NCBI GenBank assembly: GCA_964491805.1 | Contig: CAZBGU010000001.1 | Coordinates: 1,446 to 65,445, forward strand | Reading direction: 5' to 3' | DNA: 64,000 nt | From: an uncultured Candidatus Saccharibacteria bacterium | Lineage (GTDB): Bacteria > Patescibacteriota > Minisyncoccia > Phycocordibacterales > UBA5272 | Shown: piece after piece, positions 38,374 through 55,875 of the stretch | Layout of the letters: every line of letters starts with the position of its first letter | Position numbering within the stretch: the stretch's first letter is position 1 | Program-made: the position numbers and the translations under genes | The notes under the pieces: generated by a model | The model's input: the letters and a program-made list of their open reading frames with translations, nothing else | Database searches by the model: none | Told to the model about the DNA's origin: nothing

Positions 38374-39409
38374 GCGAATTCAACTCCGAAGTGCAACACC
38401 CATGACTTGTAATGGTGTTGACCAGTTGAGGCGTTTTCTTGGTCGTGTGTTAAGTATATACTCTACTTTCTGTATATCTTCATCAGATATCTGTGTAAAG
38501 TCAGTCCCTTTAGGAAAGTATTCACGAATGAGTCCATTGGTATTCTCATTAGTACCTCGTTCCCATGAATGATATGGATGAGCGTAGTAAATAGAGGTCT
38601 CGAGAGTATCTTCCATATCTTTCCAATTGGTGTTCTCGCTACCATTGTCGAGTGTTACGGTATGACATGGGAAATAGATAAGCCTTTTCATGGCTTCTAC
38701 AGTAAGAAATACTTGTCTTGCTTTTCACACGAGTTATGAGTACGAACCCACTCTTGCGGTCAACAAGTGTATTAATTCCTGGCTTATGGTTACAAGACTC
38801 TACAGTGTCTCCTTCCCAGTCACCAAGACGTCTACGTGTTTCTACGATGTGGGGACGTATATCAATACTCTTACCAGAAACACGTTCCAGCTTAGTTGTT
38901 GTGCGTAATCCATGATGAGTCCTCCGCTTTTGTTTTCTTCGTAAATATGGATGCAAATCTTCTTTCTTTGGTTTAAGAAGTCCCCAGCCATCTCTATGTA
39001 TCTGATGATAGATGTATTGATAGATTGCTTCCTGAGAAATATTACCAAGTTTCTCTTTCTTAATCATTCCAGCTATTTGTTCTGGTGACCAACTGAGCTT
39101 TAGATGTGAGATGACGTAGTCTCGTATTGTATCGTTCTTGAGCCTATCTTCTCTTACTCTTTGTGTACGCTTATGAAGAGCTTTTTCATGAGCAAGGCGA
39201 GGTGTATATTGATTCCTTGTTTGTGGATAGTTCCTTCGTAGCTCTCTTGATATCGAGGACGGGGAGCGTTGTAAAACTTCAGCTATATATCTAATTGATT
39301 TCTTTTGCCATAGTAATTCTTGGAGTTTTTCTCGTTCCATAATACTTAAATGCTTGTAATTCATATGCTTCTATTTTACTAGAAGTGTTGCACTTACTTG
39401 TTGAATTCA
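38374..39409 (-). mobile_element. IS30-family insertion sequence, transposase disrupted
   Basis: Imperfect ~28-bp terminal inverted repeats (gcgaattcaactccgaagtgcaacaccc at 38374 and gtgaattcaacaagtaagtgcaacactt as the reverse complement at 39409, 22 of 28 matched). Transposase ORFs inside. Confidence 0.6.
38380..39364 (-). pseudogene. IS30-family transposase split into two overlapping frames (38639..39364 N-terminal HTH part, 38380..38691 C-terminal DDE part)
   Basis: N-terminus 'SIRYIAEVLQRSPSSISRELRRN' HTH. C-terminus 'TLDNGSENTNWKD...ILNTRPRKRLNWSTPLQV' is typical of the IS30 DDE domain. Frame change near 38640-38690. Confidence 0.55.
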
Positions 39410-39425
39410 CTGTTATAGTTCACTA

Positions 39426-40332
39426 CCTTGAGAACACCCTACTTAAAAATAGGATATTCTCATTGCATGTACTCAACTAACAAACATTTACCAAGAATTA
39501 GACGAGATGTAGCAATCTTTGCAAAGAAGTATGGAATACGTACAGCAAGTAGACATTATGGATATGCGGTAAGTGCTATTCATAAATGGATAAAGGTGTT
39601 GGATAAAATGGGACATCATCCAATACCAACAAAGAGCTCACGACCTCACAGTCATCCAAGAGCTACAGATGAAAGTATTGTTAAGAAAATAGTCGATAAA
39701 CGAATAGAAGTAAGAAGAAGTGCAGAGGTGGTACATGAGTATCTCAAACGTGAAGGAACAGTGGTATCTCTTACTACTGTAAAGAGAACTCTTGCACGTA
39801 AGAACCTTCTTAACAAACGTAGTCCTTGGAAGAGATATCACCCACCTGTAGATAGACCGTATCCTACAAAAGCTGGTGATTTGGTCGAAATTGACATCAT
39901 ACACACAATGCAGAGTAAGAAGGTACGAATGTATACTTTCGTACTCATTGATGTATATTCGAGATGGATATACGCAAAGAGCTATCAGAAGATTAATGCA
40001 AAGACATCACTTAAATTTGTTGCACTGGCACAGAAAGAATCATCCTTCCATTTCAGTATGATTCAAACAGACCATGGACCAGAATTTAGTACATGGTTTG
40101 TGTCTCAGGTGAAGAAGAATCACAGATATACACGTATTGGTAAACCTAATGATAACTCTCATATTGAACGAGCTAATAGAACTATACAAGAAGAGTGTTT
40201 AGATAGATTAATTCCTACACCTCGTATATTCAACAAAGCACTTACCTGCTACCTTCATTACTACAATACACAGAGATTGCACTTTGGAATTCAATTAAAA
40301 ACACCAGCAGAAATGCTTGGGTGTTCTCAAGG
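39426..40332 (+). mobile_element. IS481-family insertion sequence (candidate boundaries)
   Basis: 14-bp perfect inverted repeat ccttgagaacaccc (39426) and gggtgttctcaagg (40319) flanking a DDE transposase. Confidence 0.45.
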
Positions 40333-40342
40333 TATTGATTAG
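39467..40342 (+). CDS. IS481-family DDE transposase (integrase core)
   Basis: 'IDIIHT...MIQTDHGPEF...HIERANRTIQEE' DDE triad region. N-terminal HTH. Confidence 0.7.
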   Translation: MYSTNKHLPRIRRDVAIFAKKYGIRTASRHYGYAVSAIHKWIKVLDKMGHHPIPTKSSRPHSHPRATDESIVKKIVDKRIEVRRSAEVVHEYLKREGTVVSLTTVKRTLARKNLLNKRSPWKRYHPPVDRPYPTKAGDLVEIDIIHTMQSKKVRMYTFVLIDVYSRWIYAKSYQKINAKTSLKFVALAQKESSFHFSMIQTDHGPEFSTWFVSQVKKNHRYTRIGKPNDNSHIERANRTIQEECLDRLIPTPRIFNKALTCYLHYYNTQRLHFGIQLKTPAEMLGCSQGID

Positions 40343-42960: not shown

Positions 42961-43383
42961 ATGATCATCAATTTTCATCCAAGAGAGATACCAAGTGTTA
43001 AAGGATTAGAGGTTATTGCAGCACTAAATGCCGACAAAAGTCATGAGGTCGTTCATGTAACAGATAAAACCGCTGACGAATGGAAAGCTATTATTAAAGG
43101 AGAAGAGAAACTTATCCTTGTTGCTCCTACATTTTGGTGGGGGCTTAGCTATGAATTTGATAAATGGGCCCAAAATGTTCTTAGTTATGGTTTTGCTTAT
43201 CAATATAATGCTTCAGATATGCCAGAAGGGCTCCTCAACGGAAGATTATTTGAACTTCATACGACACAAGGAACACCGGAGGTGTATGCGGCAGCGCTTC
43301 GAGCTAACATGGAACAGCGCCTCAAGGTGGGGGTTTTCGAGTTTTGTGGTGCTCGTGTGGATGTTCATTTTTACGTCAAATAA
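42961..43383 (+). CDS. Flavodoxin-like fold NAD(P)H-dependent oxidoreductase
   Basis: 'LILVAPTFWWGLSYEFDKWAQNVLSYGFAY'. Divergent to HxlR, a common regulator/quinone-reductase pairing. Confidence 0.5.
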   Translation: MIINFHPREIPSVKGLEVIAALNADKSHEVVHVTDKTADEWKAIIKGEEKLILVAPTFWWGLSYEFDKWAQNVLSYGFAYQYNASDMPEGLLNGRLFELHTTQGTPEVYAAALRANMEQRLKVGVFEFCGARVDVHFYVK

Positions 43384-43535
43384 GAACTATTTTTATGTTC
43401 GAAAGAAGCGCGGCTGGAGGCCTCGCTTCTTTCGTCTTGGTATACAAAATTCTTAATATGTTGTTAATTACTATGGTTTTTTTGGGTGAAGTGTTATACA
43501 CTTACGAACGTAAGCTATTCTGCAATAAATACACA

Positions 43536-43916
43536 ATGAAAGAAACGGAAAAAAAGAAAATCCTAATTATAGAGGATGAAAAGCCTCTAGCGCATGCGCT
43601 GTCCCTCAAGCTATCTCACGAAGGTTTTGAAGTTGTTACTACAGCAAGTGGGGAGGAAGGGCTTCAGTTATTAACTAAAGACACATTCAGTCTTGTTCTT
43701 ACTGATCTCATTATTCCTGGTGTAGATGGTTTTAAGGTTCTAGAAACAATACAGGACAAAAAAATAAAGGTACCGGTTATTGTCATTACAAATCTTAATC
43801 AAGAAGAAGACAAAAAGCGTGTGTTTGACCTCGGCGCGGCTTCATTCTTTGTTAAATCTAATTCTCCAATTTCCGAGATTGTTGAAAATGTTAAAAGTAA
43901 AATAGCAAGTTCCTGA
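43536..43916 (+). CDS. Stand-alone response-regulator receiver (CheY-like)
   Basis: 'KILIIEDEKPLA...LVLTDLIIPGVDGF...VIVITN' with Asp pocket and phospho-acceptor D. Confidence 0.75.
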   Translation: MKETEKKKILIIEDEKPLAHALSLKLSHEGFEVVTTASGEEGLQLLTKDTFSLVLTDLIIPGVDGFKVLETIQDKKIKVPVIVITNLNQEEDKKRVFDLGAASFFVKSNSPISEIVENVKSKIASS

Positions 43917-43940
43917 TATACTCTTAAGTAAGAACCACCT

Positions 43941-45611
43941 ATGAACATTGACACCAACAACATAAAAGAAATTCTAATCACTGGGAATTATATCAGTGAG
44001 GAGGATGCACAAAAAGCAGAAGATATTGCAAAGAAAAATAGTATCTCTTTTATCGAAGCATTGTTGCGCGAAGGTGTTGTAAATAGTGACATAGTTGGAC
44101 AGGCTACAGCTGAAAGTTTCAAAGTTCCATATTCCGATCTTAACTCTGCTGCAATTAGTGCTGATCAGGTGCGTAAGATTCCAGAAGAGGTTGCAAAAAA
44201 GTTGCGAGTAGTTCTCTTTAACGATGAAGATGAAGAGGAAGTTGTCATTACAACCAATAATCCACTTCAAGATGGATTAGTTAAAGAGCTGCAGCCTCTC
44301 TTTAAAGGAAAGAAAATAAAAATTACATATTCTCTGCCAGAGGACATTGATAGTTTTTTTGTTTTCTACGAGAAGCCGCTTGATACCAGATTTTCAAAAA
44401 TCATAGCAGAATCTGATCGTGTTGCTCCAGAAATTCTTGAGGAGATTTTTGATGATGCAATTACATACAAAGCATCTGATGTTCACTTTGAACCGCAAGC
44501 ACGAGTTATTGTGATTCGTTTCCGTGTTGATGGTGTGCTTCACGAAGCAGGCCGTCTTCCAAAAGAAAATTATGAAAATGTTTTGAACCGAATTAAAGTT
44601 AAAAGCGCACTTCGCATTGATGAACATTATTCTGCGCAGGATGGGTCACTCCACTATGATGGTAAAAATGGAATTTCTGTGGATATGCGTACATCAATTA
44701 TTCCAATTGTTGAGGGCGAGAAAGTCGTACTCCGTATTCTTGGTTCGTACGTTCAGGGTCTTACTTTTAATGATCTTGGTCTAACTCCAAAAAATCAAGA
44801 GCTTCTTCGTGAAGCCGCAGATAAGCCATTCGGCATGATTCTTGTTGTTGGACCTACTGGTTCAGGAAAGACTACAACGCTTTACTCTCTTCTTAAGATG
44901 CTTAATACTCCTGATACAAACATTACCACAATTGAAGATCCGGTCGAGTACAAGGTTCAGGGTCTTAATCAGATTCAGGTAACACAAGCAACTGGCCTTA
45001 CATTCGTCCGTGGTCTGCGCGCAATCGTGCGACAAGATCCAGATATTATTCTTGTTGGAGAAATCCGTGACCTTGAAACTGTAGAGATTTCTGTTAATGC
45101 TGCGCTCACTGGTCATCTCCTTCTTTCTACTTTCCATGCCAATGATGCAGCAACAGCAATCCCTCGTCTTCTTGATATGGGGACAGAGCCATTTCTTCTT
45201 TCCTCAACGATGAATCTTATTATTGCCCAGCGACTTGTTCGTAAAATTTGTGATCATTGTAAGGTTAGTGTTGTTAAGAAGCCGTCAGATTTTGATACAC
45301 CACAATTAAAAGGGGTGCGTAAGTATCTTCCTGCGAAGAATCTTACTCTGTATGAGGGTAAGAAATGTGAAGTGTGCGGTTTTACGGGGTATAAAGGTAG
45401 AACTTCGATTTATGAAGTGATTAAAGTTACCCCAACAATGCAAGAACTGATAGTAAAACGTCCGTCAGCTCAAGAAATCTGGAAGCTAGCACGCAAGGAG
45501 GGTGCCAGGTCGGTGTTTGAGGATGGTCTTGAAAAGGTGAAGAATGGTATAACTTCTATTGAAGAGCTAGTCCGTATTGCTCCTCCGCCAGATCGTGCTT
45601 TTGATGAATAA
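43941..45611 (+). CDS. pilB: Type IV pilus / T2SS assembly ATPase PilB/GspE
   Basis: GSPII_E N-terminal domain. Walker A 'VVGPTGSGKTTTLYS'. Tetracysteine-like 'CDHCK...CEVCG'. Confidence 0.85.
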   Translation: MNIDTNNIKEILITGNYISEEDAQKAEDIAKKNSISFIEALLREGVVNSDIVGQATAESFKVPYSDLNSAAISADQVRKIPEEVAKKLRVVLFNDEDEEEVVITTNNPLQDGLVKELQPLFKGKKIKITYSLPEDIDSFFVFYEKPLDTRFSKIIAESDRVAPEILEEIFDDAITYKASDVHFEPQARVIVIRFRVDGVLHEAGRLPKENYENVLNRIKVKSALRIDEHYSAQDGSLHYDGKNGISVDMRTSIIPIVEGEKVVLRILGSYVQGLTFNDLGLTPKNQELLREAADKPFGMILVVGPTGSGKTTTLYSLLKMLNTPDTNITTIEDPVEYKVQGLNQIQVTQATGLTFVRGLRAIVRQDPDIILVGEIRDLETVEISVNAALTGHLLLSTFHANDAATAIPRLLDMGTEPFLLSSTMNLIIAQRLVRKICDHCKVSVVKKPSDFDTPQLKGVRKYLPAKNLTLYEGKKCEVCGFTGYKGRTSIYEVIKVTPTMQELIVKRPSAQEIWKLARKEGARSVFEDGLEKVKNGITSIEELVRIAPPPDRAFDE

Positions 45612-45621
45612 TATCGCATAC

Positions 45622-46947
45622 ATGTCTACGTCAATCATCAAAAAAAAGATATCAGAAAAAACTGAAGCGAACACCAAGAAAGAACAAAAACCACAGAAAG
45701 AAAAGAATGTTACAAAGAGTCAATCAAAAGAGACAGCTTCTTCTTTTGATGTTTCTCTTGTTTCTGGAGAAGTAAAACCTGTTCCTGTTCCAAAAAATGC
45801 AACCAAAGAGGAAAAGGTAACCATCTCTGAGCCTGTGAAGGCAACACCGGCACCTCAGCGTAAGATCGCAGAAGAAAAAAAATTGTCTACATTTGGTCTC
45901 AGTAAGGAGCGCGATCAGTTCATTGAAAATCTGAGCATGCTTGTCATGTCTGGAATGTCAATTATTGGAGCTCTTTCATCTATCATCAAACAAACCAAGT
46001 CGCCAGGAATGAAAAAAATTCTTGAAAGAATGTTACTTGAGATTGAGTCAGGTTCTCCTGTGTGGAAGTCACTTGATAAAACAGGTTTTTTTAAAGGGTA
46101 TACAATTTCCCTTATTCGTCTCGGGGAAGAGTCTGGCAATTTTGCTGAGAACCTCAAAGTCGTTGCGCTTGAAGAAGAAAAGGATCGTGAGTTTAAATCA
46201 AAAGTCCACTCAGCTCTTATGTACCCTGTTTTCGTGCTCGTGCTAACGAATGTTGTCGGTATTGGTATTTCGTGGTTTATTTTGCCTAAATTGGCAAAAA
46301 TTTTCTTTGACCTTAAACTCGCGCTACCTCTTATTACGAGAGTATTGATTGGTTTTGGTCTTTTTCTTAATAAGTATGGGCTTATAGCTGTTCCTGTAGC
46401 GGTTTTCTTCATAGGTATTATCGTCAATATTCTTTTTTTTGGTAAAAAAACCAAATTTCTTGGTGAGTATATAATTTTCTCTATACCAGGTATTAAGACA
46501 TTACTTATGGAGGTTGAGGTGGCTCGTTTTGGATATCTGCTCGGCACCCTTCTTGAGGCTGGGTTACCTGTGACGAAAGCAATTGATTCGCTAGCAGGCG
46601 CATCTGATGTCATCCGATACAAGAAATTTTATTTGTATCTAAAAGACTCGATTGATATGGGGAATTCGTTCCAGAAAAGTTTTGCTGGCTATAAAAATAT
46701 CGACAATCTCATACCGCAGCCAATTCAGCAGTTAATTGTCTCTGGTGAACAGTCTGGCAATCTTAATAAAACACTTATTAAGGTCGGCCAAGTGCTTGAA
46801 GCAAAGTCAGACACGACAACAAAGAATCTCACTATTATTATGGAACCAATTTTGCTTGTTATTGTGTGGGCGGGTGTAGTGTCTGTTGCATTTGCGGTAA
46901 TACTTCCTATTTACAGTCTTGTCGGTAATCTTAACGGTCTTAAATAG
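45622..46947 (+). CDS. pilC: Type IV pilus platform protein PilC/GspF with Lys/Glu-rich N-terminal extension
   Basis: Two T2SSF repeats ('LSMLVMSGMSIIGAL', 'FGYLLGTLLEAGLPV'). 3 TM. Confidence 0.8.
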   Translation: MSTSIIKKKISEKTEANTKKEQKPQKEKNVTKSQSKETASSFDVSLVSGEVKPVPVPKNATKEEKVTISEPVKATPAPQRKIAEEKKLSTFGLSKERDQFIENLSMLVMSGMSIIGALSSIIKQTKSPGMKKILERMLLEIESGSPVWKSLDKTGFFKGYTISLIRLGEESGNFAENLKVVALEEEKDREFKSKVHSALMYPVFVLVLTNVVGIGISWFILPKLAKIFFDLKLALPLITRVLIGFGLFLNKYGLIAVPVAVFFIGIIVNILFFGKKTKFLGEYIIFSIPGIKTLLMEVEVARFGYLLGTLLEAGLPVTKAIDSLAGASDVIRYKKFYLYLKDSIDMGNSFQKSFAGYKNIDNLIPQPIQQLIVSGEQSGNLNKTLIKVGQVLEAKSDTTTKNLTIIMEPILLVIVWAGVVSVAFAVILPIYSLVGNLNGLK

Positions 46948-46952
46948 TCAGT

Positions 46953-47402
46953 ATGAGACATATCAAAGTATCACATAAAGGTTTTACACTTCCTGAGGTT
47001 TTGCTTTCAGTTGCACTGCTAACAATTATTGGTGGGATGAGTATTCCAATGTATCGTGTCTTCATGGTTCGTGATGAATTGGACAGTGCAGCAACAACAC
47101 TAGCGCAGAACCTGAGACGTGCACAGATGCTTTCCCGCTCTTCGTCTGGGGATATGACATGGGGTGTTCATGTAGGGGTAGGGAGTATACTTATCTATAA
47201 AGGATCAAATTACGTTCTTCGAGATTCTTCATTTGATGAGAACACGTCTATCCCGACAACGATTGTTCCAACCGGTACAACAGAGGTCACCTTTTCAAAG
47301 GTAACGGGTTTACCTTCGGCGACAGGAACGTTCACACTTACTTCGCAAGCTAATGAAAAACGAACTATCACAATCAATGAAAAAGGAACGGTTGACTACT
47401 AG
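46953..47402 (+). CDS. Prepilin-type (pseudopilin/minor pilin) protein
   Basis: Class III signal 'MRHIKVSHKG/FTLPEVLL'. Confidence 0.7.
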   Translation: MRHIKVSHKGFTLPEVLLSVALLTIIGGMSIPMYRVFMVRDELDSAATTLAQNLRRAQMLSRSSSGDMTWGVHVGVGSILIYKGSNYVLRDSSFDENTSIPTTIVPTGTTEVTFSKVTGLPSATGTFTLTSQANEKRTITINEKGTVDY

Positions 47403-49671
47403 GAGTGGTTTTTTGTTGGTTGAAGTTATACTCACAAGTGCTTTATTCTTTCTTTTTGTAACTGCATTCGTTGGCGTATTGTATTACGCAATACAGTCGT
47501 CATCATTTGCAGGTGACCGGTCACGCGCTGTGATGCTTGCTGAAGAAGGCCAAGAAGCTGTAAGGAGTATCAAAAATGCTAATTTTTCTAATCTTACAGA
47601 TGGGACGTATGGTCTTACTTTTTCGGGTAATACGTGGAGTTTCTCAGGAACACAAGATATTTCTGGTGCTTTTACTCGTAAGGTTATTATAACTACACCA
47701 TCAACAAATAGAAAAAATGTTGAAGTTGTTGTCTCGTGGCAGCAGACTCCAGATAGAGTTGGAAGCGTTAGTATTCCTGCGCGTTTTTCAAACTGGAGAA
47801 CGATTCTTAATCCAGGAGTTGGGGTTACGGTAACAAGTGTTGTCATTAATCATGGTCAGTCAAAAAATGTTAATGACTTTGCACCGTATAAAGTTGGAAC
47901 GACAACTGTAACATTGGCTTCTTCTACTATCTTTTCTCCCGGCACATATGTAGTCACCGCTGCTACAAGTTCTAACTATACACAAACATTTAGCGGGGAC
48001 TGTAATGTGAGTGGTCAGCTTACAATTACTGCAGGAGCAGCTAAGGTGTGTACTATTACGTACGAAGAAAAACTTGCATATGTAACACTTACTAATACTG
48101 TTATTAATCACGGCAGGACAAAAACAACTGCTGATTTTGCTCCGTATAAAGTTGGATCGACTACGGTTACTTTGGGAGCGACGACGCCTATAAATTCCGG
48201 ATCTTATTCTATTAGTGAAACAACAGATGTTAATTATAACCTAACATTTACAGGTGACTGTTTTACTAATGGTACTATCACACTTAATCCTGGCAGTAAC
48301 ACAACATGTGCGCTAACAAATGAGGAAATAATAACAGGGGGCGGAGGGGGAAGTCAGTCACTTGCTGGAATTATAATTTATGGGGACGGCACTAATATTC
48401 CCAAGTATAGAACCTTCAACCATGTAACAAATGTATTTAGTGCAGAGACTGGGACGTTTGTTGCGACAGTCGGGCCAACTTGGCTTATACGAACATCCCC
48501 AACACAGCACATTGCTCTTGCTGGGTACTATGACTCTACTGCGACACTTACGATTATGTGTTTTGACGGAATAACGTGGACACAAGAATTTCGTGCAGCG
48601 TCAGGTGGTGTTGGTAATCGTCATCGTTTTGATATTGCTTTTGAAAAGACATCCGGCGACGCAATGGTACTTTTTAGTAAAGGGAACAATATTCTTGGGG
48701 CACTTGGGTATAAAACTAAAACAGGCGGGACCGGTTGCGGAGCTGGCTGGGCAGCAGAACAGACCCTTACCCCGCAGAGAACGACAAATGATATTATGTA
48801 CGTAAAACTTGCGCAAGATAGACGTGCTGGCTCAAACCTATTAGCTGCCACATGGGTTGATATTAATGAAGATATTTCAGCTAAGATATGGGCTGGCTCA
48901 GCTTGGGTAAATGAGCCTTCATCTGTTACGGATAATAATCTTGAAAAGGTCACCACTTCTCACGATATTGAGAATATGGATATTGAGTATGAGTCTTTGT
49001 CAGGAGATCTCATGCTTGTTTGGTCAAATGCCCTAGGTAATAATGGTACTAATGGTGCTCGTTATAGAACATGTAATGGTGGTATAGCTATGTGTACATG
49101 GGGGGCAGTGACAACACCGCCATCGTTTCTTGATGATGCAACGAGTCTTGACATTGCTGCAAATCAAAATACTGACGAGATGGTTTTTGCATCGATTGGT
49201 AATGCTGGGGGAGATCTACAGTTAGGGTATTGGAATGGAAATGGATGGACAAATACTGCAAACGTAGACACATCATGTACTGTTCCGTATACTGCATCAA
49301 AGCTTGTTTCTACGGGTTGGCTCACGCTTGGAAGCACAACACGATCTATTGTGGTGTATTCTGACCTTAGTTCTACTGCTATTAATTGGTACACTGGTAA
49401 CGCTGGAGTCTTTACGCGACAAGCTGACTTTGTCCCAACTAGTCCAGTTGCTTCACCTCGCGGGTATATGGATATCCACATGAACCCGCGAGATCAGTCT
49501 CAACTCATGTATCTTACTTCTGATAATAATAGTGATCTATTTGCAAAGCGTCTTATGTTAACAGGGACATCAACGTTTACGTGGACTAATTCTGATGGTG
49601 GTTCGGCACTAGAGACAACGCTTCCACAGATTATTTCTTCCCCATTTTCATTTGCCTTTTGGCAACAGTAG
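47377..49671 (+). CDS. Large (764 aa) pilin-like protein with prepilin leader and two ~80-aa internal tandem repeats, candidate tip adhesin
   Basis: Leader 'MKKERLTTRSG/FLLVEV' (E at +5). Repeats 'VINHGQSKNVNDFAPYKVGTTTVTL...' and 'VINHGRTKTTADFAPYKVGSTTVTL...'. Start overlaps the upstream gene by 26 nt. Confidence 0.55.
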   Translation: MKKERLTTRSGFLLVEVILTSALFFLFVTAFVGVLYYAIQSSSFAGDRSRAVMLAEEGQEAVRSIKNANFSNLTDGTYGLTFSGNTWSFSGTQDISGAFTRKVIITTPSTNRKNVEVVVSWQQTPDRVGSVSIPARFSNWRTILNPGVGVTVTSVVINHGQSKNVNDFAPYKVGTTTVTLASSTIFSPGTYVVTAATSSNYTQTFSGDCNVSGQLTITAGAAKVCTITYEEKLAYVTLTNTVINHGRTKTTADFAPYKVGSTTVTLGATTPINSGSYSISETTDVNYNLTFTGDCFTNGTITLNPGSNTTCALTNEEIITGGGGGSQSLAGIIIYGDGTNIPKYRTFNHVTNVFSAETGTFVATVGPTWLIRTSPTQHIALAGYYDSTATLTIMCFDGITWTQEFRAASGGVGNRHRFDIAFEKTSGDAMVLFSKGNNILGALGYKTKTGGTGCGAGWAAEQTLTPQRTTNDIMYVKLAQDRRAGSNLLAATWVDINEDISAKIWAGSAWVNEPSSVTDNNLEKVTTSHDIENMDIEYESLSGDLMLVWSNALGNNGTNGARYRTCNGGIAMCTWGAVTTPPSFLDDATSLDIAANQNTDEMVFASIGNAGGDLQLGYWNGNGWTNTANVDTSCTVPYTASKLVSTGWLTLGSTTRSIVVYSDLSSTAINWYTGNAGVFTRQADFVPTSPVASPRGYMDIHMNPRDQSQLMYLTSDNNSDLFAKRLMLTGTSTFTWTNSDGGSALETTLPQIISSPFSFAFWQQ

Positions 49672-50189
49672 TACGTATGAATATCCTTAAAACACAAAAA
49701 GGCTTCACCTTGGTGGAAATGGTGCTTTATGTTGCGCTCTGCTCTCTTCTACTTCTTTCTTTATCTGGTTTCACATCGTTTCTTTTAGAGACCAAAACAA
49801 GAAGTCAAGCTATTAACGAAGTTAATCAACAAGGTTCGCAAGTAATGTCACTCATTGTACAGACTATTAGAAACAGTAAAAGTGTAGAATCTCCACAGTT
49901 TGGACAAAGCTCTTCAACGCTTTCTGTAACAACATCAAACCCATTACTTAACCCTACGGTTTTTTTATTAAGCACCACCACTCTTGTTGTTAGTGAGGCC
50001 GGTAAAACTTCAATTGCGCTTACTAATTCTCGAGTAGCAGTTTCTTCTCTATTATTTCAAAATATTTCTTCAACATCTTCATTAGAGAAGAATATCAGAA
50101 TATCATTTACGATTGACGCAGTTAACAAAAGCGGTAGAGGAGAGTATTCGTATACAAAAACGTTTAATGGTAGTGCTATAATTCACTAA
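49659..50189 (+). CDS. Prepilin-type pseudopilin
   Basis: 'KTQKG/FTLVEMVLYVAL'. Confidence 0.65.
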   Translation: MATVVRMNILKTQKGFTLVEMVLYVALCSLLLLSLSGFTSFLLETKTRSQAINEVNQQGSQVMSLIVQTIRNSKSVESPQFGQSSSTLSVTTSNPLLNPTVFLLSTTTLVVSEAGKTSIALTNSRVAVSSLLFQNISSTSSLEKNIRISFTIDAVNKSGRGEYSYTKTFNGSAIIH

Positions 50190-50196
50190 TCAAACT

Positions 50197-50613
50197 TTGA
50201 TGAAAAGTATATCAGTAGAAAAATACAGAACAGTAAGAAAGGGGTATATTGCATTGCTTTCAGTTATATTTATTTCAGCAATTGGTGTCTTGATTATGCT
50301 TTCTGTTATTGCGTCAGGAGTTGATGCGTCTAAAACCGACTATGTATCTCAACAATCAGGACAGTCAAGAGCGATGGCTTCTTCGTGCGCAGAAGAAGCT
50401 TTACAGAAGATACTCGAAACAGGCACGACGTCAAGTGTAGGGACACTTACTATAGCTTCTGGGACCTGTACATATGTAATAAGCTCGGTCGGTGGTTTGC
50501 ACGTTGATTCGACTGGTGTTTTTGGATCTATCACATCAAAGGTAAAAGTAGTAATTTCGACAACATCCCCTTCAATTGTCTTATCCTCATGGTCAGAAGT
50601 TGCAGACTTCTAA
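50197..50613 (+). CDS. Pilin-like protein with non-canonical leader (PilX-like?)
   Basis: 'RKGYIALLSVIFISAIGVLIML' hydrophobic N-terminus. No Glu at +5. Confidence 0.4.
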   Translation: MMKSISVEKYRTVRKGYIALLSVIFISAIGVLIMLSVIASGVDASKTDYVSQQSGQSRAMASSCAEEALQKILETGTTSSVGTLTIASGTCTYVISSVGGLHVDSTGVFGSITSKVKVVISTTSPSIVLSSWSEVADF

Positions 50614-50756
50614 AACCATAATTGTCTGCTATACTGAAAAGGTAGGTCAGCAAGGGTTATTCCTTCTGCCGCTCGGGTGTTAAAACCTAAAAGTGTTTTT
50701 ATTATTTAAAAGTTAAATTAGTTTCGAATACAGCTATATCGTATTCATTATATTTT

Positions 50757-51212
50757 ATGAAAAAAATACTACGCAGTCAGAAGGGATTTACACTTATTGA
50801 AATCCTCCTTGTGGTTGCAGCTATCGCTATTCTTGCAGGTATCGTTATCGTGGCTATTAACCCAGCTAAGCAGCTTGGCGACACACGTAATGCTTCAAGA
50901 AATTCAGCTGTAAACACAATTCTTAATGCCATTACACAGTATTCAGTTGACAATAACGGTATCCTTCCGTCTGGAATTACCGCAACTTCGACAGAAATCT
51001 GTTCTTCATCTGTAGCAACATCATCATGTACAGGTCTTGTTGACCTTTCTGTTCTTACAGCTGGTGGTAAGTACATTACTGCTATTCCAGATGAACCACA
51101 GAAGACCAATCCTAACGGAGCTGGTTATACAGTTTCTAAGAATGCAGCTGGTCGTATCACCGTGAGTGCACAGTTCCCAGAAAGTGGTGCTGTTATCTCG
51201 GTAACACGCTAA
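50757..51212 (+). CDS. Type IV major pilin, copy 1
   Basis: 'MKKILRSQKG/FTLIEILLVVAAIAILAGIV'. Conserved Cys pair. Confidence 0.75.
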   Translation: MKKILRSQKGFTLIEILLVVAAIAILAGIVIVAINPAKQLGDTRNASRNSAVNTILNAITQYSVDNNGILPSGITATSTEICSSSVATSSCTGLVDLSVLTAGGKYITAIPDEPQKTNPNGAGYTVSKNAAGRITVSAQFPESGAVISVTR

Positions 51213-51232
51213 ATAAACAGAACTAGAATTAT

Positions 51233-51688
51233 ATGAAAAAAATACTACGCAGTCAGAAGGGATTTACACTTATTGAAATCCTCCTTGTGGTTGCAGCTAT
51301 CGCTATTCTTGCAGGTATCGTTATCGTGGCTATTAACCCAGCTAAGCAGCTTGGCGACACACGTAATGCTTCAAGAAATTCAGCTGTAAACACAATTCTT
51401 AATGCCATTACACAGTATTCAGTTGACAATAACGGTATCCTTCCGTCTGGAATTACCGCAACTTCGACAGAAATCTGTTCTTCATCTGTAGCAACATCAT
51501 CATGTACAGGTCTTGTTGACCTTTCTGTTCTTACAGCTGGTGGTAAGTATGTCACCGCTATCCCTGATGAACCACAGAAGACCAATCCTAATGGTGCAGG
51601 CTATATGGTTTCAAAGAATTCTAATGGTCGCATCACTGTAAGCGCTCAGTTCCCAGAGAGTGGTGCTTCTATCTCTGTAACTAGATAG
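51233..51688 (+). CDS. Type IV major pilin, copy 2 (tandem duplicate)
   Basis: Nucleotide-identical to copy 1 over the first ~313 nt and diverged thereafter. Confidence 0.75.
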   Translation: MKKILRSQKGFTLIEILLVVAAIAILAGIVIVAINPAKQLGDTRNASRNSAVNTILNAITQYSVDNNGILPSGITATSTEICSSSVATSSCTGLVDLSVLTAGGKYVTAIPDEPQKTNPNGAGYMVSKNSNGRITVSAQFPESGASISVTR

Positions 51689-51695
51689 TCTGTGT

Positions 51696-52499
51696 ATGTT
51701 TACTTGGTTCTCTCGTAAGAAAATGACTGAATCTCGTAGTTCGGAGAAAAAAGATGATGGTTTTATATCTCTTGCTTCTCATGAATTGCGTTCACCACTG
51801 TCTATAATCAAATGGTATACAGAGATTCTTCTTGACGAAGATGCTGGCCCACTCACTAGCGACCAACGTAAGTATCTTATGACCATAGAATCAAGTAATC
51901 AGCGCGCAATTGATCTTGTTCGGTCTTTACTAAACGTATCCAGGTTAGACCTGGGTACGTTTAGTGTTTCACCTGTCAGTCTTAACATTGCAACTATACT
52001 CACGGAAGTTGTTTCATCTTTTAGCAAAGAGATGGAAGTAAAACACCTTGAGGTAATTAATAGTGCCAAGGATGTAAAGAATATTCTTGCAGACAAAAAT
52101 CTTTGTACGACTCTCGTTAAGAATGTTATTGCAAATGCAATCTCATTTTCAAGTAATGGGGGAAAGATTTTCATTGACACATCAGTTGTGTCTGCATATG
52201 AAAAGATCGGAGAGGTGACAGTTAACGAAGAAAGTATTCTTTTTTCTGTTAGAGATACCGGTATCGGTATACCTGAGGCAGATAAAGATAAGGTTTTCAC
52301 GAAGATGTTTAAAGCAGGGAATGTTAAGGATTCTGATAGTACAGGTTCTGGTCTTGGGTTATATATTACAAAAAGTATTCTCGATTATGTTGGTGGTACT
52401 ATTTGTTTCACTTCGACAGAAGGTGAAGGTTCAACTTTTTTTGTGACTTTGCCTACAAGAGGTATGGAAAAGAAAGAAGGAAGGACGACACTGGATTAA
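51696..52499 (+). CDS. Sensorless histidine kinase (HisKA + HATPase_c only)
   Basis: H-box 'ISLASHELRSPLSII'. G-boxes 'DTGIGIP', 'GSGLGLYI'. No TM or sensor domain. Confidence 0.75.
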   Translation: MFTWFSRKKMTESRSSEKKDDGFISLASHELRSPLSIIKWYTEILLDEDAGPLTSDQRKYLMTIESSNQRAIDLVRSLLNVSRLDLGTFSVSPVSLNIATILTEVVSSFSKEMEVKHLEVINSAKDVKNILADKNLCTTLVKNVIANAISFSSNGGKIFIDTSVVSAYEKIGEVTVNEESILFSVRDTGIGIPEADKDKVFTKMFKAGNVKDSDSTGSGLGLYITKSILDYVGGTICFTSTEGEGSTFFVTLPTRGMEKKEGRTTLD

Positions 52500-52610
52500 G
52501 TACAACCGTTAATTAGTAACTCTTAACTGTTTGCTTAACATAATCAAAAGCACAACACTTCTGTGTTGTGCTTTTGTTTTTGGAGTACACTTTCTCGACA
52601 AGGGCTTTCT

Positions 52611-54125
52611 TTACACGCCTCGTAACACTGTAATTTTTGCACCAATACTGTTAAGTCTTTCTGCTATGTCTGCATAGCCCCGCTTTATAGAGTAAACATT
52701 ACGAAGCATTGATGTTCCTTCTGCAGCAAGCATCGCGATAAGAATAATTGCTGTTGGACGAAGCGCTGGTGGCGATACGATTTGTGCACCTCTAAGTCGT
52801 TTGATGCCTGTGATAAGTGCCCTGTGTGGATCAAGAAGTTTAATGTCTGCTCCTAGTCTATTGAGTTCAGTAAAGTAAATTGCACGGTTCTCCCAGGTCC
52901 AGTCGTGAATAAGTGTTTGGCCATGAGCAAAGCAACAGATGGGTACAAAGAAAGGGAGATTGTCATTATTAATTCCTGGAAACGGTTGTGTATGTATCTT
53001 GTCATATGGAGCAACCAGTTCGGATGGAAATAGTGTTATATCTACAAGTACAGTTTTGTTGTTTTTTGAAAGATAGGATTTTGATTGTTTGTAAACAAGA
53101 CCCATGCGCTTCAGTTTTTCGATTTCAAGAGTTAGAAAATCTATTGGACAGCGAGTTACGGTTAGCTTTGATTTTGTAACAATACCAGCCGCAATAAAGA
53201 ACATGCTTTCTATGGGATCTTCGCTATTGTAATGTTCTACGGTGAGGTTGATTGTTTTTTTGCCGTGGACAGTTAACGTCGTTGTGCCTATGCCGTCAAT
53301 TTGTACACCGAATGACTGTAATAGAAAACATACATCTTGCACTTGGTAGTTAGGAGGTGCAAATTTAATAACAGTGGTGCCTTCTATTCTCGATGCCGCA
53401 ATTAGTGCAGTAATGGCCCCAGTGTCAGACGACTCATAGAGAGGTATAACGCCAGGGGACAGCTCTTTGTAGGAGATTTCATAGTGGTTCTCTTTCGTAA
53501 CTACCTGTACACCGAGGTAATCAAGTGCGTACTTATGCGAAGCAACAGTTCGTTCACCCATTTTACAGCCACCGGAGTGAGGAAGTGAAAACGAATCCGT
53601 GAAATGAATAAATGCGCCAGCAAAGGTAAACGATCGAATCTTTTCTGCGGCCTGTTTGTTGATCTTAGAAAAAGTGAGTTTCTTTGGTGGTGTAATTTCG
53701 AGCGCTGTATCATTATGAGTCCAACGTATCTTCACCCCAACACTTTCTAGAAGCTCTTTATAGCGGTATACCTCTTCTATGTGAGGAATGTCTCGAAGTG
53801 TTGTTGTTCCTGAGTTAACAAGTGCCGCCACCATCATGTTAATTGCACCATTCTTAGAGGTATTGGTAGCAATAGTGCCTTTCAGCTTTCTTCCACCTTC
53901 AACTTTGAAGTCTATAGTATCTTGGATGCTAACAATGTTATGCTTAAGAACCTCGCCTATTTTCATTAGTTGTTCTATAGTGACGTTTTGATTGCCTGCT
54001 TCGATGCGTGCAACTGCTGACTGAGATGTCTTAAGCTTCTCAGAAAACTCACCCTGTGTCATCCCTTTTTCTTCCCGTAATTTCTTAATAAAAAGCCCGA
54101 TTTTCTCCTGGTCATTTGGTTCCAT
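52611..54125 (-). CDS. murA: XRE-family HTH domain fused to UDP-N-acetylglucosamine 1-carboxyvinyltransferase MurA
   Basis: N-terminus 'LFIKKLREEKGMTQGEFSEKLKTSQSAVARIEAG' HTH_XRE. MurA 'KVEGGRKLKGTIATNTSKNGA', active-site Cys loop 'GGCKMGERTVASH', C-terminus 'IKRGYADIAERLNSIGAKI'. Confidence 0.75.
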   Translation of the reverse strand: MEPNDQEKIGLFIKKLREEKGMTQGEFSEKLKTSQSAVARIEAGNQNVTIEQLMKIGEVLKHNIVSIQDTIDFKVEGGRKLKGTIATNTSKNGAINMMVAALVNSGTTTLRDIPHIEEVYRYKELLESVGVKIRWTHNDTALEITPPKKLTFSKINKQAAEKIRSFTFAGAFIHFTDSFSLPHSGGCKMGERTVASHKYALDYLGVQVVTKENHYEISYKELSPGVIPLYESSDTGAITALIAASRIEGTTVIKFAPPNYQVQDVCFLLQSFGVQIDGIGTTTLTVHGKKTINLTVEHYNSEDPIESMFFIAAGIVTKSKLTVTRCPIDFLTLEIEKLKRMGLVYKQSKSYLSKNNKTVLVDITLFPSELVAPYDKIHTQPFPGINNDNLPFFVPICCFAHGQTLIHDWTWENRAIYFTELNRLGADIKLLDPHRALITGIKRLRGAQIVSPPALRPTAIILIAMLAAEGTSMLRNVYSIKRGYADIAERLNSIGAKITVLRGV

Positions 54126-55527: not shown

Positions 55528-55875
55528 TTGTATACTAAAGATATGAAAACAACTCAGTTTCTAGAATATATCCTGTATGATATTTTTGGTGAGCATGAGC
55601 CAATAACTGCGCGAGCGATGATGGGTGCACATGTTCTTTACTATGAAGGTAAGGCTTTTGCTATTGTTGAAAATGAAGAGTTGTACTTCAAAGGCTCGAA
55701 GGAATTAAAAGAGTGGTACCTGTCTCGTGGCAGTAAACAGTTTACGTATACGAAAGAAGGAGAGGACGCACATCTGTATTATTTTCTCGTACCGTCTGAA
55801 ATTTATGAAGACAGAGTAGCGCGAGATGAGTGGTTAGATGTTGCGCTCAGTGTAGCGAAGCTGCCAAAAAGTTGA
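55528..55875 (+). CDS. TfoX N-terminal-domain-like protein
   Basis: 'ARAMMGAHVLYYEGKAFAIVENEELYFKG' resembles the TfoX_N family. Confidence 0.35.
   Translation: MYTKDMKTTQFLEYILYDIFGEHEPITARAMMGAHVLYYEGKAFAIVENEELYFKGSKELKEWYLSRGSKQFTYTKEGEDAHLYYFLVPSEIYEDRVARDEWLDVALSVAKLPKS

Follow-up and report, generated by a model that had tools for sequence, protein, structure and literature searches.

Tandem type IV pilin genes with a shared head and diverged tails: probable recurrent gene conversion in a Patescibacteria clade

The 64-kb stretch of contig analysed here (the window), from a member of the candidate phyla radiation (CPR; Patescibacteria), carries two tandem type IV pilin genes that are identical over their first 317 nt and sharply diverged over the rest. 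They are probably two functional major-pilin genes, old paralogues whose first 317 nt were recently united by interlocus gene conversion, a process that appears to recur in the clade. As such, the pair is a real example of a well-known process and represents neither a new mechanism nor a new system.

The two open reading frames (ORFs) lie on the forward strand at 50757..51212 (copy 1) and 51233..51688 (copy 2), each 456 nt long and encoding 151 amino acids. Compared base by base, they show zero mismatches over gene nucleotides 1-317. The exact repeat is 318 nt long (50756..51073 = 51232..51549), as it includes one common T before the ATG; in copy 1, this putatively converted tract covers the signal peptide, the α1 helix and the αβ-loop with Cys82 and Cys91. 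The first mismatch falls at 51074 in copy 1 and at 51550 in copy 2, and the remaining 139 nt, i.e. the tails at 51074..51212 and 51550..51688 (codons 106-151, encoding the C-terminal β-strands), differ at 30 positions (21.6%). These mismatches are spread over 24 codons, comprising 18 synonymous sense changes, five replacements (I107V, T125M, A130S, A131N and V146S, copy 1 versus copy 2) and one change of stop codon (TAA versus TAG). Upstream of their start codons, the copies are unrelated: a 143-nt intergenic region precedes copy 1, and a 20-nt spacer without a terminator (51213..51232) precedes copy 2. When the 194 family-variable sites were shuffled 20,000 times, the run of 122 concordant sites seen in this pair was never reproduced (P < 5e-5). 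The only other long direct repeat in the window, with 71% identity, is internal to the gene of a 772-aa protein.

Much of this architecture had been anticipated by an earlier, sequence-only reading of the same DNA, which described tandem pilin genes identical at their 5′ and diverged at their 3′ ends, listed examples of synonymous and amino-acid changes, and noted that only copy 1 has a long upstream intergenic region. The base-by-base comparison bears out each of these statements, and the proposed rate of one changed base in four in the diverged part agrees with the measured 30/139. The identical tract was likewise correctly recognised, but its length, given as ~313 nt, was an underestimate.

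The contrast between the two gene parts becomes clearer when synonymous divergence (dS) is considered. Over codons 1-105, dS between copy 1 and copy 2 is 0 (83 synonymous sites), as compared with 0.57-1.17 between the window pilins and the pilins of nine other genomes. Along the same first 317 nt, the window genes are 78-88% identical to other genomes' pilins, with almost all differences being synonymous; thus, the heads are 100% identical within the genome and at most 87.7% identical to those of any other genome, the signature of concerted evolution. The tails tell a different story: between the copies, their dS is 1.24 (proportion of synonymous sites that differ 0.61, ~34 sites; lower bound ~0.66) and their nonsynonymous divergence (dN) 0.086, giving a dN/dS of ~0.07. 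Their mutual identity of 78.4% does not exceed the range seen against the tails of other genomes (70-80%), and the flanking genes, compared with those genomes, have a saturated dS of at least 1.3 and a dN of 0.15-0.40. Hence, the tails separated long ago and have since been under purifying selection, whereas the union of the heads is very recent. The five amino-acid differences sit in the C-terminal strands and loop at family-variable positions; residue 125 is the most variable one in the family, and residues 130 and 131 rank in the top six.

Constraint does not explain the identity of the heads. Besides the between-genome dS of 0.57-1.17, this is because residues 61-105, which lie within the identical part, vary across the family to the same extent as residues 106-151 (0.85 versus 0.84 bits), and because a distant tandem pair (L008), which shares the same conserved helix, shows third-position differences throughout, its longest identical run being 11 nt. 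L008 also served as a negative control for the search for homogenised segments and is without an identical tract.

Every tandem pair recovered from the close clade shows the same head-identical mosaic, each with its own breakpoint, which adds six other genomes to the one studied here. In gene coordinates, the identical tracts extend over nt 16-207 in L001 (192 nt), 10-224 in L002 (215 nt), 1-186 in the L167 pair (L167/L168; 186 nt) and 1-172 in L173 (172 nt), whereas two other pairs have interrupted tracts, at nt 17-177 and 211-437 in L082 (161 + 227 nt) and at nt 17-92 and 103-146 in L081 (76 + 44 nt). The permutation analysis covered L081, L082, L167, L168 and L173, with L001 and L002 outside its scope, and returned P < 5e-5 for L082, L167, L168 and L173 and 0.04 for L081.

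Two of these genomes are of special value for dating the duplication. The head of the second L081 gene is closer to that of the second L082 gene (91.5%) than to that of its own partner (85.8%). In addition, the first genes of both genomes keep the leader MKKILSNQ and the ending ...VTQ, and both second genes end in ...V[TM]R. At the same time, the interior of the L082 pair has been homogenised to 95.6% identity. Taken together, positional orthology and the homogenised interior therefore indicate conversion between old duplicates and not a fresh duplication, and, judging from these sequences, the duplication predates speciation in at least one sub-lineage. The earlier proposal of recent 5′ gene conversion between old duplicates thus finds support on three counts, namely a dS of 0 in the heads versus ~1.24 in the tails, the tracts in six relatives and the positional orthology of L081 and L082.

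A further pattern concerns residues 62-71, where two head types recur, QYAVDNNG(I/V)LP and QYSIDNNG(I/V/T)FP, both in L081, L082 and L167 and in many database homologues. Each of the pairs in L081, L082 and L167 combines the two types (in swapped order in L167), which suggests two paralogue lineages of ancient origin. In the window, both copies have a hybrid head, QYSVDNNGILP.

Mechanistically, non-reciprocal homologous recombination between the two direct repeats would have overwritten the first 317 nt of one copy with those of the other, the direction of transfer being presumptive. The converted stretch would comprise the leader peptide, the α1 helix and the αβ-loop; it could extend no further in the 5′ direction because homology ends at the start codon. 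Conversion would have ended at codon 106, leaving the anciently diverged C-terminal β-sheet segments intact. The long conserved head may supply the stretches of identity at which recombination, presumably RecA-dependent, can start, whereas the tails would mostly escape through divergence, selection or both, with L082 providing exceptions. Its recurrence across the clade would amount to partial concerted evolution.

The Escherichia coli Chi octamer, GCTGGTGG, is present at 51060-51067 and 51536-51543, 7 nt 5′ of the breakpoint in both copies. The window contains four such octamers (two of them within the repeat) against 0.92 expected. A role of Chi at the breakpoint was considered and rejected: the count is unconvincing, the residues are not kept in relatives and breakpoints elsewhere differ, so that the octamer's position is probably a coincidence.

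Several observations weigh against conversion between old duplicates as the origin of the window pair. Its tails show no positional orthology with the tails of other genomes, the segments being short and saturated, which leaves room for a scenario in which a recent duplicate acquired a foreign 3′ part. Moreover, L084/L086, L171/L172 and L175 have a single pilin gene between the gene of a 138-aa protein and the kinase gene that flank the pair in the window; hence, copy number may vary, and duplication could be recurrent instead of ancestral. These single-pilin loci are short-read contigs and may represent either collapsed or genuine single copies. Finally, no homology can be recognised between the spacer of the window pair and the spacers in L081, L082 and L173.

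The strongest alternative builds on these points and posits a recent tandem duplication of the whole gene, after which the 3′ third of one copy was replaced by DNA from a diverged strain or species, i.e. mosaicism through transformation. Apparently variable copy number would fit this scenario, as would the mosaic nature of pilin alleles in the clade, illustrated by P0137/P0011, which combine a window-like head with an L171-like ‘GITLVPTE’ middle and a tail resembling that of copy 2. Lateral exchange of pilin DNA is also one explanation for a pilin dS (0.57-1.17) below that of the flanks (at least 1.3), and the locus encodes a DNA-uptake-type pilus with a TfoX_N gene nearby. Yet, no donor came to light, the best tail match reaching 80% among ~20 related genes and L175 being ~85% identical overall. 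A simple tandem duplication would, furthermore, have copied the spacer unit too, but identity stops exactly at the start codon. Six other pairs with identical heads and diverged tails are more economically explained by conversion between resident paralogues, and L081 and L082 show old duplicates in the course of being converted. On balance, we regard 3′ import as unlikely, though clearly ahead of the remaining alternatives, and retain interlocus conversion as the probable explanation.

As the source is a metagenome-assembled contig, with both proteins on one NCBI contig of 167,231 bp, the pair might conceivably be an artefact of assembly or polishing, in which one pilin gene from each of two co-existing strains was stitched together or two diverged heads were wrongly made identical. 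Assemblers are prone to error where an exact repeat exceeds their k-mer in length, and related short-read contigs (L170, L083 and L169) do break at or inside the pair, which justifies the warning of the sequence-only reading about assembly hazards. Because the locus fragments or collapses in short-read assemblies, pilin copy number is likely under-counted in metagenome-assembled genomes of the CPR. However, an independent SPAdes contig (L174; ERZ4216102, 4.4 kb, 3.8x coverage) is identical to the window over 1012 nt (51019..52030), a stretch that takes in the tail of copy 1, the 20-nt spacer and all of copy 2 before running into the kinase gene. This makes an artefact very unlikely, all the more so as at least six other assemblies, among them a 272-kb contig, show the tandem genes in synteny, and heads that were 12-20% apart, as they are between genomes, could not have been merged by polishing. 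L174 begins exactly 55 nt before the first mismatch between the copies, presumably reflecting the behaviour of a de Bruijn graph with k = 55 at the edge of an exact repeat.

Downstream of the identical stretch, L174 differs from the window by 10 single-nucleotide polymorphisms and one small variable patch. The latter lies in the kinase gene (window 52031-52065, 35 nt, versus L174:1013-1039) and shows heavy differences including indels, while L174 is otherwise 99.6% identical; the L174 kinase is called as a shorter ORF. The patch is either an error in the low-coverage L174 assembly or a local variable segment.

Equally improbable is programmed pilin variation, be it in a Neisseria-like form, with an expressed gene and donor cassettes, or in a Moraxella-like form, with a shared 5′ part and switched 3′ ends. 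Variable pilins do have a similar layout, in which a constant 5′ part is joined to a variable 3′ one, and an rve-family integrase is encoded ~10 kb upstream. Nevertheless, both copies are complete genes with a start codon and leader, they are arranged as direct and not inverted repeats without flanking inverted repeats, and their tails, with a dN/dS of ~0.07 and only five amino-acid differences, are under purifying selection. The integrase belongs to an insertion sequence (IS)-like unit that is unrelated to the pil operon and absent from L081 and L082. Programmed antigenic variation is further unsupported because neither silent cassettes, nor an invertible segment, nor a guanine-quadruplex motif was detected. 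Specifically, a blastn-short and tblastn search of the 64-kb window with the head, the tails and the globular domain recovered only the two complete genes and no further pilin fragment; the quadruplex pattern is missing from both strands at 48001-54000; and inverted repeats in the region 49500-52800 are all short and weak. No recombinase lies next to the pair, the nearest integrase being the one ~10 kb away. Consequently, within the 64 kb examined, neither of the earlier suggestions, recombination with a pilin cassette and antigenic variation in miniature, finds support.

Least credible of all is selection acting directly at the nucleotide level (e.g. on mRNA structure, on a regulatory element within the gene or through extreme codon bias), which would suit a gene that is probably very highly expressed and whose between-genome dS is below that of its flanks, but is contradicted by the 12-22% difference, almost all synonymous, of the same 317 nt across genomes, by the third-position differences throughout the L008 paralogues and by tract ends that vary by genome.

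The assignment of both genes as pilins rests on several features. Both proteins carry the prepilin motif MKKILRSQKG|FTLIEILLVVAAIAILAGIV (MKKILRSQKG|FTLIE at its core, as annotated for copy 1) and match the Pfam N_methyl family PF07963 with 29.3 and 29.2 bits at a cutoff of 21.2. Their short basic leader ends in Gly and is followed by a hydrophobic N-terminus with Phe+1 and Glu+5, as is typical of type IV pilins. Both have the pilin fold, that is, the ‘lollipop’ of a long N-terminal helix packed on an antiparallel β-sheet; the pilins listed for comparison are Clostridioides difficile PilJ, PulG, Thermus thermophilus PilA4 and Streptococcus sanguinis PilE1. A Foldseek search against the PDB gave no significant match for the pilins. 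From their small size, operon-end position, dedicated conserved leader and extreme conservation, we infer that they are major, i.e. filament-forming, subunits. Homologues number in the thousands, and their source names, where present, belong to Parcubacteria or another Patescibacteria group. Exact-match look-ups of copy 1 and of the 772-aa protein returned no record. A scan of genome contigs yielded five usefully close loci, and a scan of metagenome contigs with the generic pattern QKGFTLIE returned distant pilins only among the matches listed.

The degree of conservation deserves a separate comment. In a comparison of window 47353-52499 with L081, L082, L084, L086, L167, L170, L171, L173 and L175, the major pilin far exceeds every other protein of the locus in conservation, with a dN of 0.02-0.10 versus 0.15-0.40 for the 772-aa, 138-aa and kinase genes, and its between-genome dS is likewise below that of the flanking genes. 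Major pilins usually show the reverse pattern. The low dN and dS could reflect strong codon bias combined with constraint, or else lateral exchange of pilin alleles. In the related genome L003 (4255-11359), one 148-aa pilin is accompanied by four tandem pilins of ~545 aa. The latter contain a module of ~400 residues between the head and the C-terminal strands (...GRINVQACSxEN..ISVTR) and are mutually 61-83% identical at the DNA level.

The pair forms part of a pilus cluster in which the genes are ordered as response regulator, PilB, PilC, GspH-like minor pilin, 772-aa protein, minor pilin, 138-aa protein, pilin 1, pilin 2 and histidine kinase, an order common to L081, L082, L170, L171 and L173. 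Proteins of the T2SSE, T2SSF, GspH-like and N_methyl types, i.e. the assembly machinery, are encoded at 43941-50189, and the segment of pilus machinery and minor pilins as a whole spans 43941..50613 on the forward strand. It comprises, all on the same strand, the genes of the PilB ATPase (43941-45611), PilC (45577-46947), the GspH-like minor pilin (46953-47402), the 772-aa pilin-like protein (47353-49671), the minor pilin (49659-50189) and the 138-aa protein (50197-50613). The kinase gene (51696..52499, forward strand; HisKA and HATPase_c domains) starts 8 nt after copy 2 and is syntenic in all relatives. No prepilin peptidase was identified among the window ORFs scanned.

Some details of the cluster and its surroundings are worth recording. 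The internal repeat of the 772-aa gene measures 94 nt (47824-47917 and 48082-48175, 71% identical) and reflects two protein modules (VINHG..K...DFAPYKVG.TTVTL). Within 43300-51700, no gene of the pilus cluster, both pilins included, has a recognisable Shine-Dalgarno sequence upstream, and for the ORFs called from TTG at 45577, 49659 and 50197, the true start is probably an ATG located a few codons further on. The IS-like unit occupies 38639-40342, ~10 kb upstream of the pilins, and encodes an HTH_38 protein on the reverse and the rve-family integrase on the forward strand; the loci of L081 and L082 that lack it are syntenic with the window. Close to the pilus operon, at 55528-55875, lies the TfoX_N-domain gene, which L081 and L082 have in the syntenic position; in other bacteria, TfoX proteins regulate competence. 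Finally, the reverse strand at 52611-54125 encodes a 504-aa protein in which an N-terminal HTH_3 domain is fused to an enolpyruvyl transferase domain of the EPSP-synthase/MurA type, a fusion kept in L081, L082, L171 and L173.

With regard to expression, the region upstream of copy 1 (50622-50756) contains TTGTCTGCTATACT, which resembles an extended -10 element, and then a leader of ~120 nt, and is conserved in at least eight related loci. The promoter-like element itself (TGcTATACT, 50627..50635, forward strand), whose function is putative, is conserved in an upstream alignment of nine related loci. The leader (50636..50756, forward strand) would form the 5′ untranslated region; it is present only before copy 1, with conserved blocks in L081, L082, L084, L171, L173 and L175, and includes what may be a hairpin (GGTAGGTCAGCAAGGG...CCTTCTGCC) along with a T-rich block. 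The L167 locus has a duplicate of the leader that precedes its copy 2. Rfam, searched in E-value mode, gave no match for the copy-1 leader, and the whole window returned two tRNAs only; covariation in the leader is weak according to RNAalifold, and no RNA structure is claimed. Downstream of the kinase, an inverted repeat with 20-nt arms (90% complementary) and a T run (52539..52582, forward strand) is probably the terminator of the pilin-pilin-kinase unit. Pilin 1, pilin 2 and the kinase probably constitute one transcription unit, given that copy 1 alone has the promoter-like element and leader, that there is no terminator between the copies and that the kinase follows after 8 nt and is itself followed by a strong hairpin. 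Both pilins and the histidine kinase would accordingly be co-transcribed from a single conserved promoter and leader upstream of copy 1.

The two proteins would both be cleaved at G10|F11 and, because their assembly helices are identical, they may be processed and polymerised by the same machine into one filament. The result would be a mixed pilus whose surface differs at five family-variable positions, as in S. sanguinis PilE1/PilE2. Going beyond the proposed conversion itself, one could imagine a maintained two-module system in which conversion keeps the assembly half identical while the surface half is kept different, and in which the repeat permits unequal crossing-over and hence variation in copy number and surface; we consider this idea tentative and rather unlikely. 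If it were true, unequal crossing-over at the repeat would give rise to single-copy chimeras and re-duplications, producing population variation in pilus surface and copy number that would be relevant to host attachment, DNA uptake or phage evasion in episymbionts. A type IV pilin would then also join the few prokaryotic genes known to undergo recurrent concerted evolution over long periods.

Gene conversion between bacterial paralogues and tandem major pilins are both textbook phenomena. Our literature searches found no description of such conversion for CPR pilins, and to our knowledge almost nothing is known about in-vivo recombination in this phylum. The value of the pair thus lies in being a clean, well-controlled case of partial concerted evolution in a bacterial filament subunit. 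It implies that these reduced genomes undergo homologous recombination between short direct repeats, and suggests that pili may be built from two nearly identical major subunits in these organisms. It also carries a practical message, as whole-gene pilin trees mix two histories.

In Neisseria, variable 3′ parts of the pilin gene are copied from silent, 5′-truncated pilS cassettes into one pilE expression locus. The window pair shares with this system a type IV major pilin, non-reciprocal recombination and the combination of a constant 5′ with a variable 3′ part. In contrast to pilE/pilS, however, it is the constant 5′ part that is homogenised here, and this takes place between two complete, apparently expressed genes.

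Recurrent concerted evolution has been documented in prokaryotes, where it is regarded as rare; the 26 genes listed in one survey include tandem flagellins and no pilin (PMC6053082). As with tufA/tufB and the tandem flagellin genes of Alteromonadales, the paralogues discussed here resemble their partners in the same genome more than orthologues from different genomes resemble one another, the pattern recurs in a clade and the products are subunits of a complex or filament (PMC6053082). Unlike in those cases, conversion is partial and head-biased, with one segment evolving in concert and the other diverging.

Among cultivated members of the CPR, type IV pili of Saccharibacteria (TM7x) mediate host binding and twitching motility (PMC11623550). 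Their PilA1 and PilA2 resemble the window pilins in coming from a CPR lineage and in being small, highly expressed major pilins that are accompanied by larger minor pilins and PilB/PilC (PMC11623550). Unlike the window pair, PilA1 and PilA2 represent two separate pilus systems at different loci and not a tandem pair in one operon.

The closest precedent is found in S. sanguinis, whose pilus the available text of PMC10628169 describes as a stochastic heteropolymer of two major pilins, PilE1 and PilE2, with an identical N-terminal portion. The window pair matches this arrangement in having two tandem full-length major pilin genes with an identical α1 helix. It departs from it in that the organism belongs to the CPR, the proteins differ at only five residues without an extra loop, and co-expression and co-assembly are predicted ones. 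Homogenisation at the nucleotide level, as documented here, is not among the features of PilE1/PilE2 described in the same text. By analogy with PilE1 and PilE2, the two window pilins probably co-assemble likewise.

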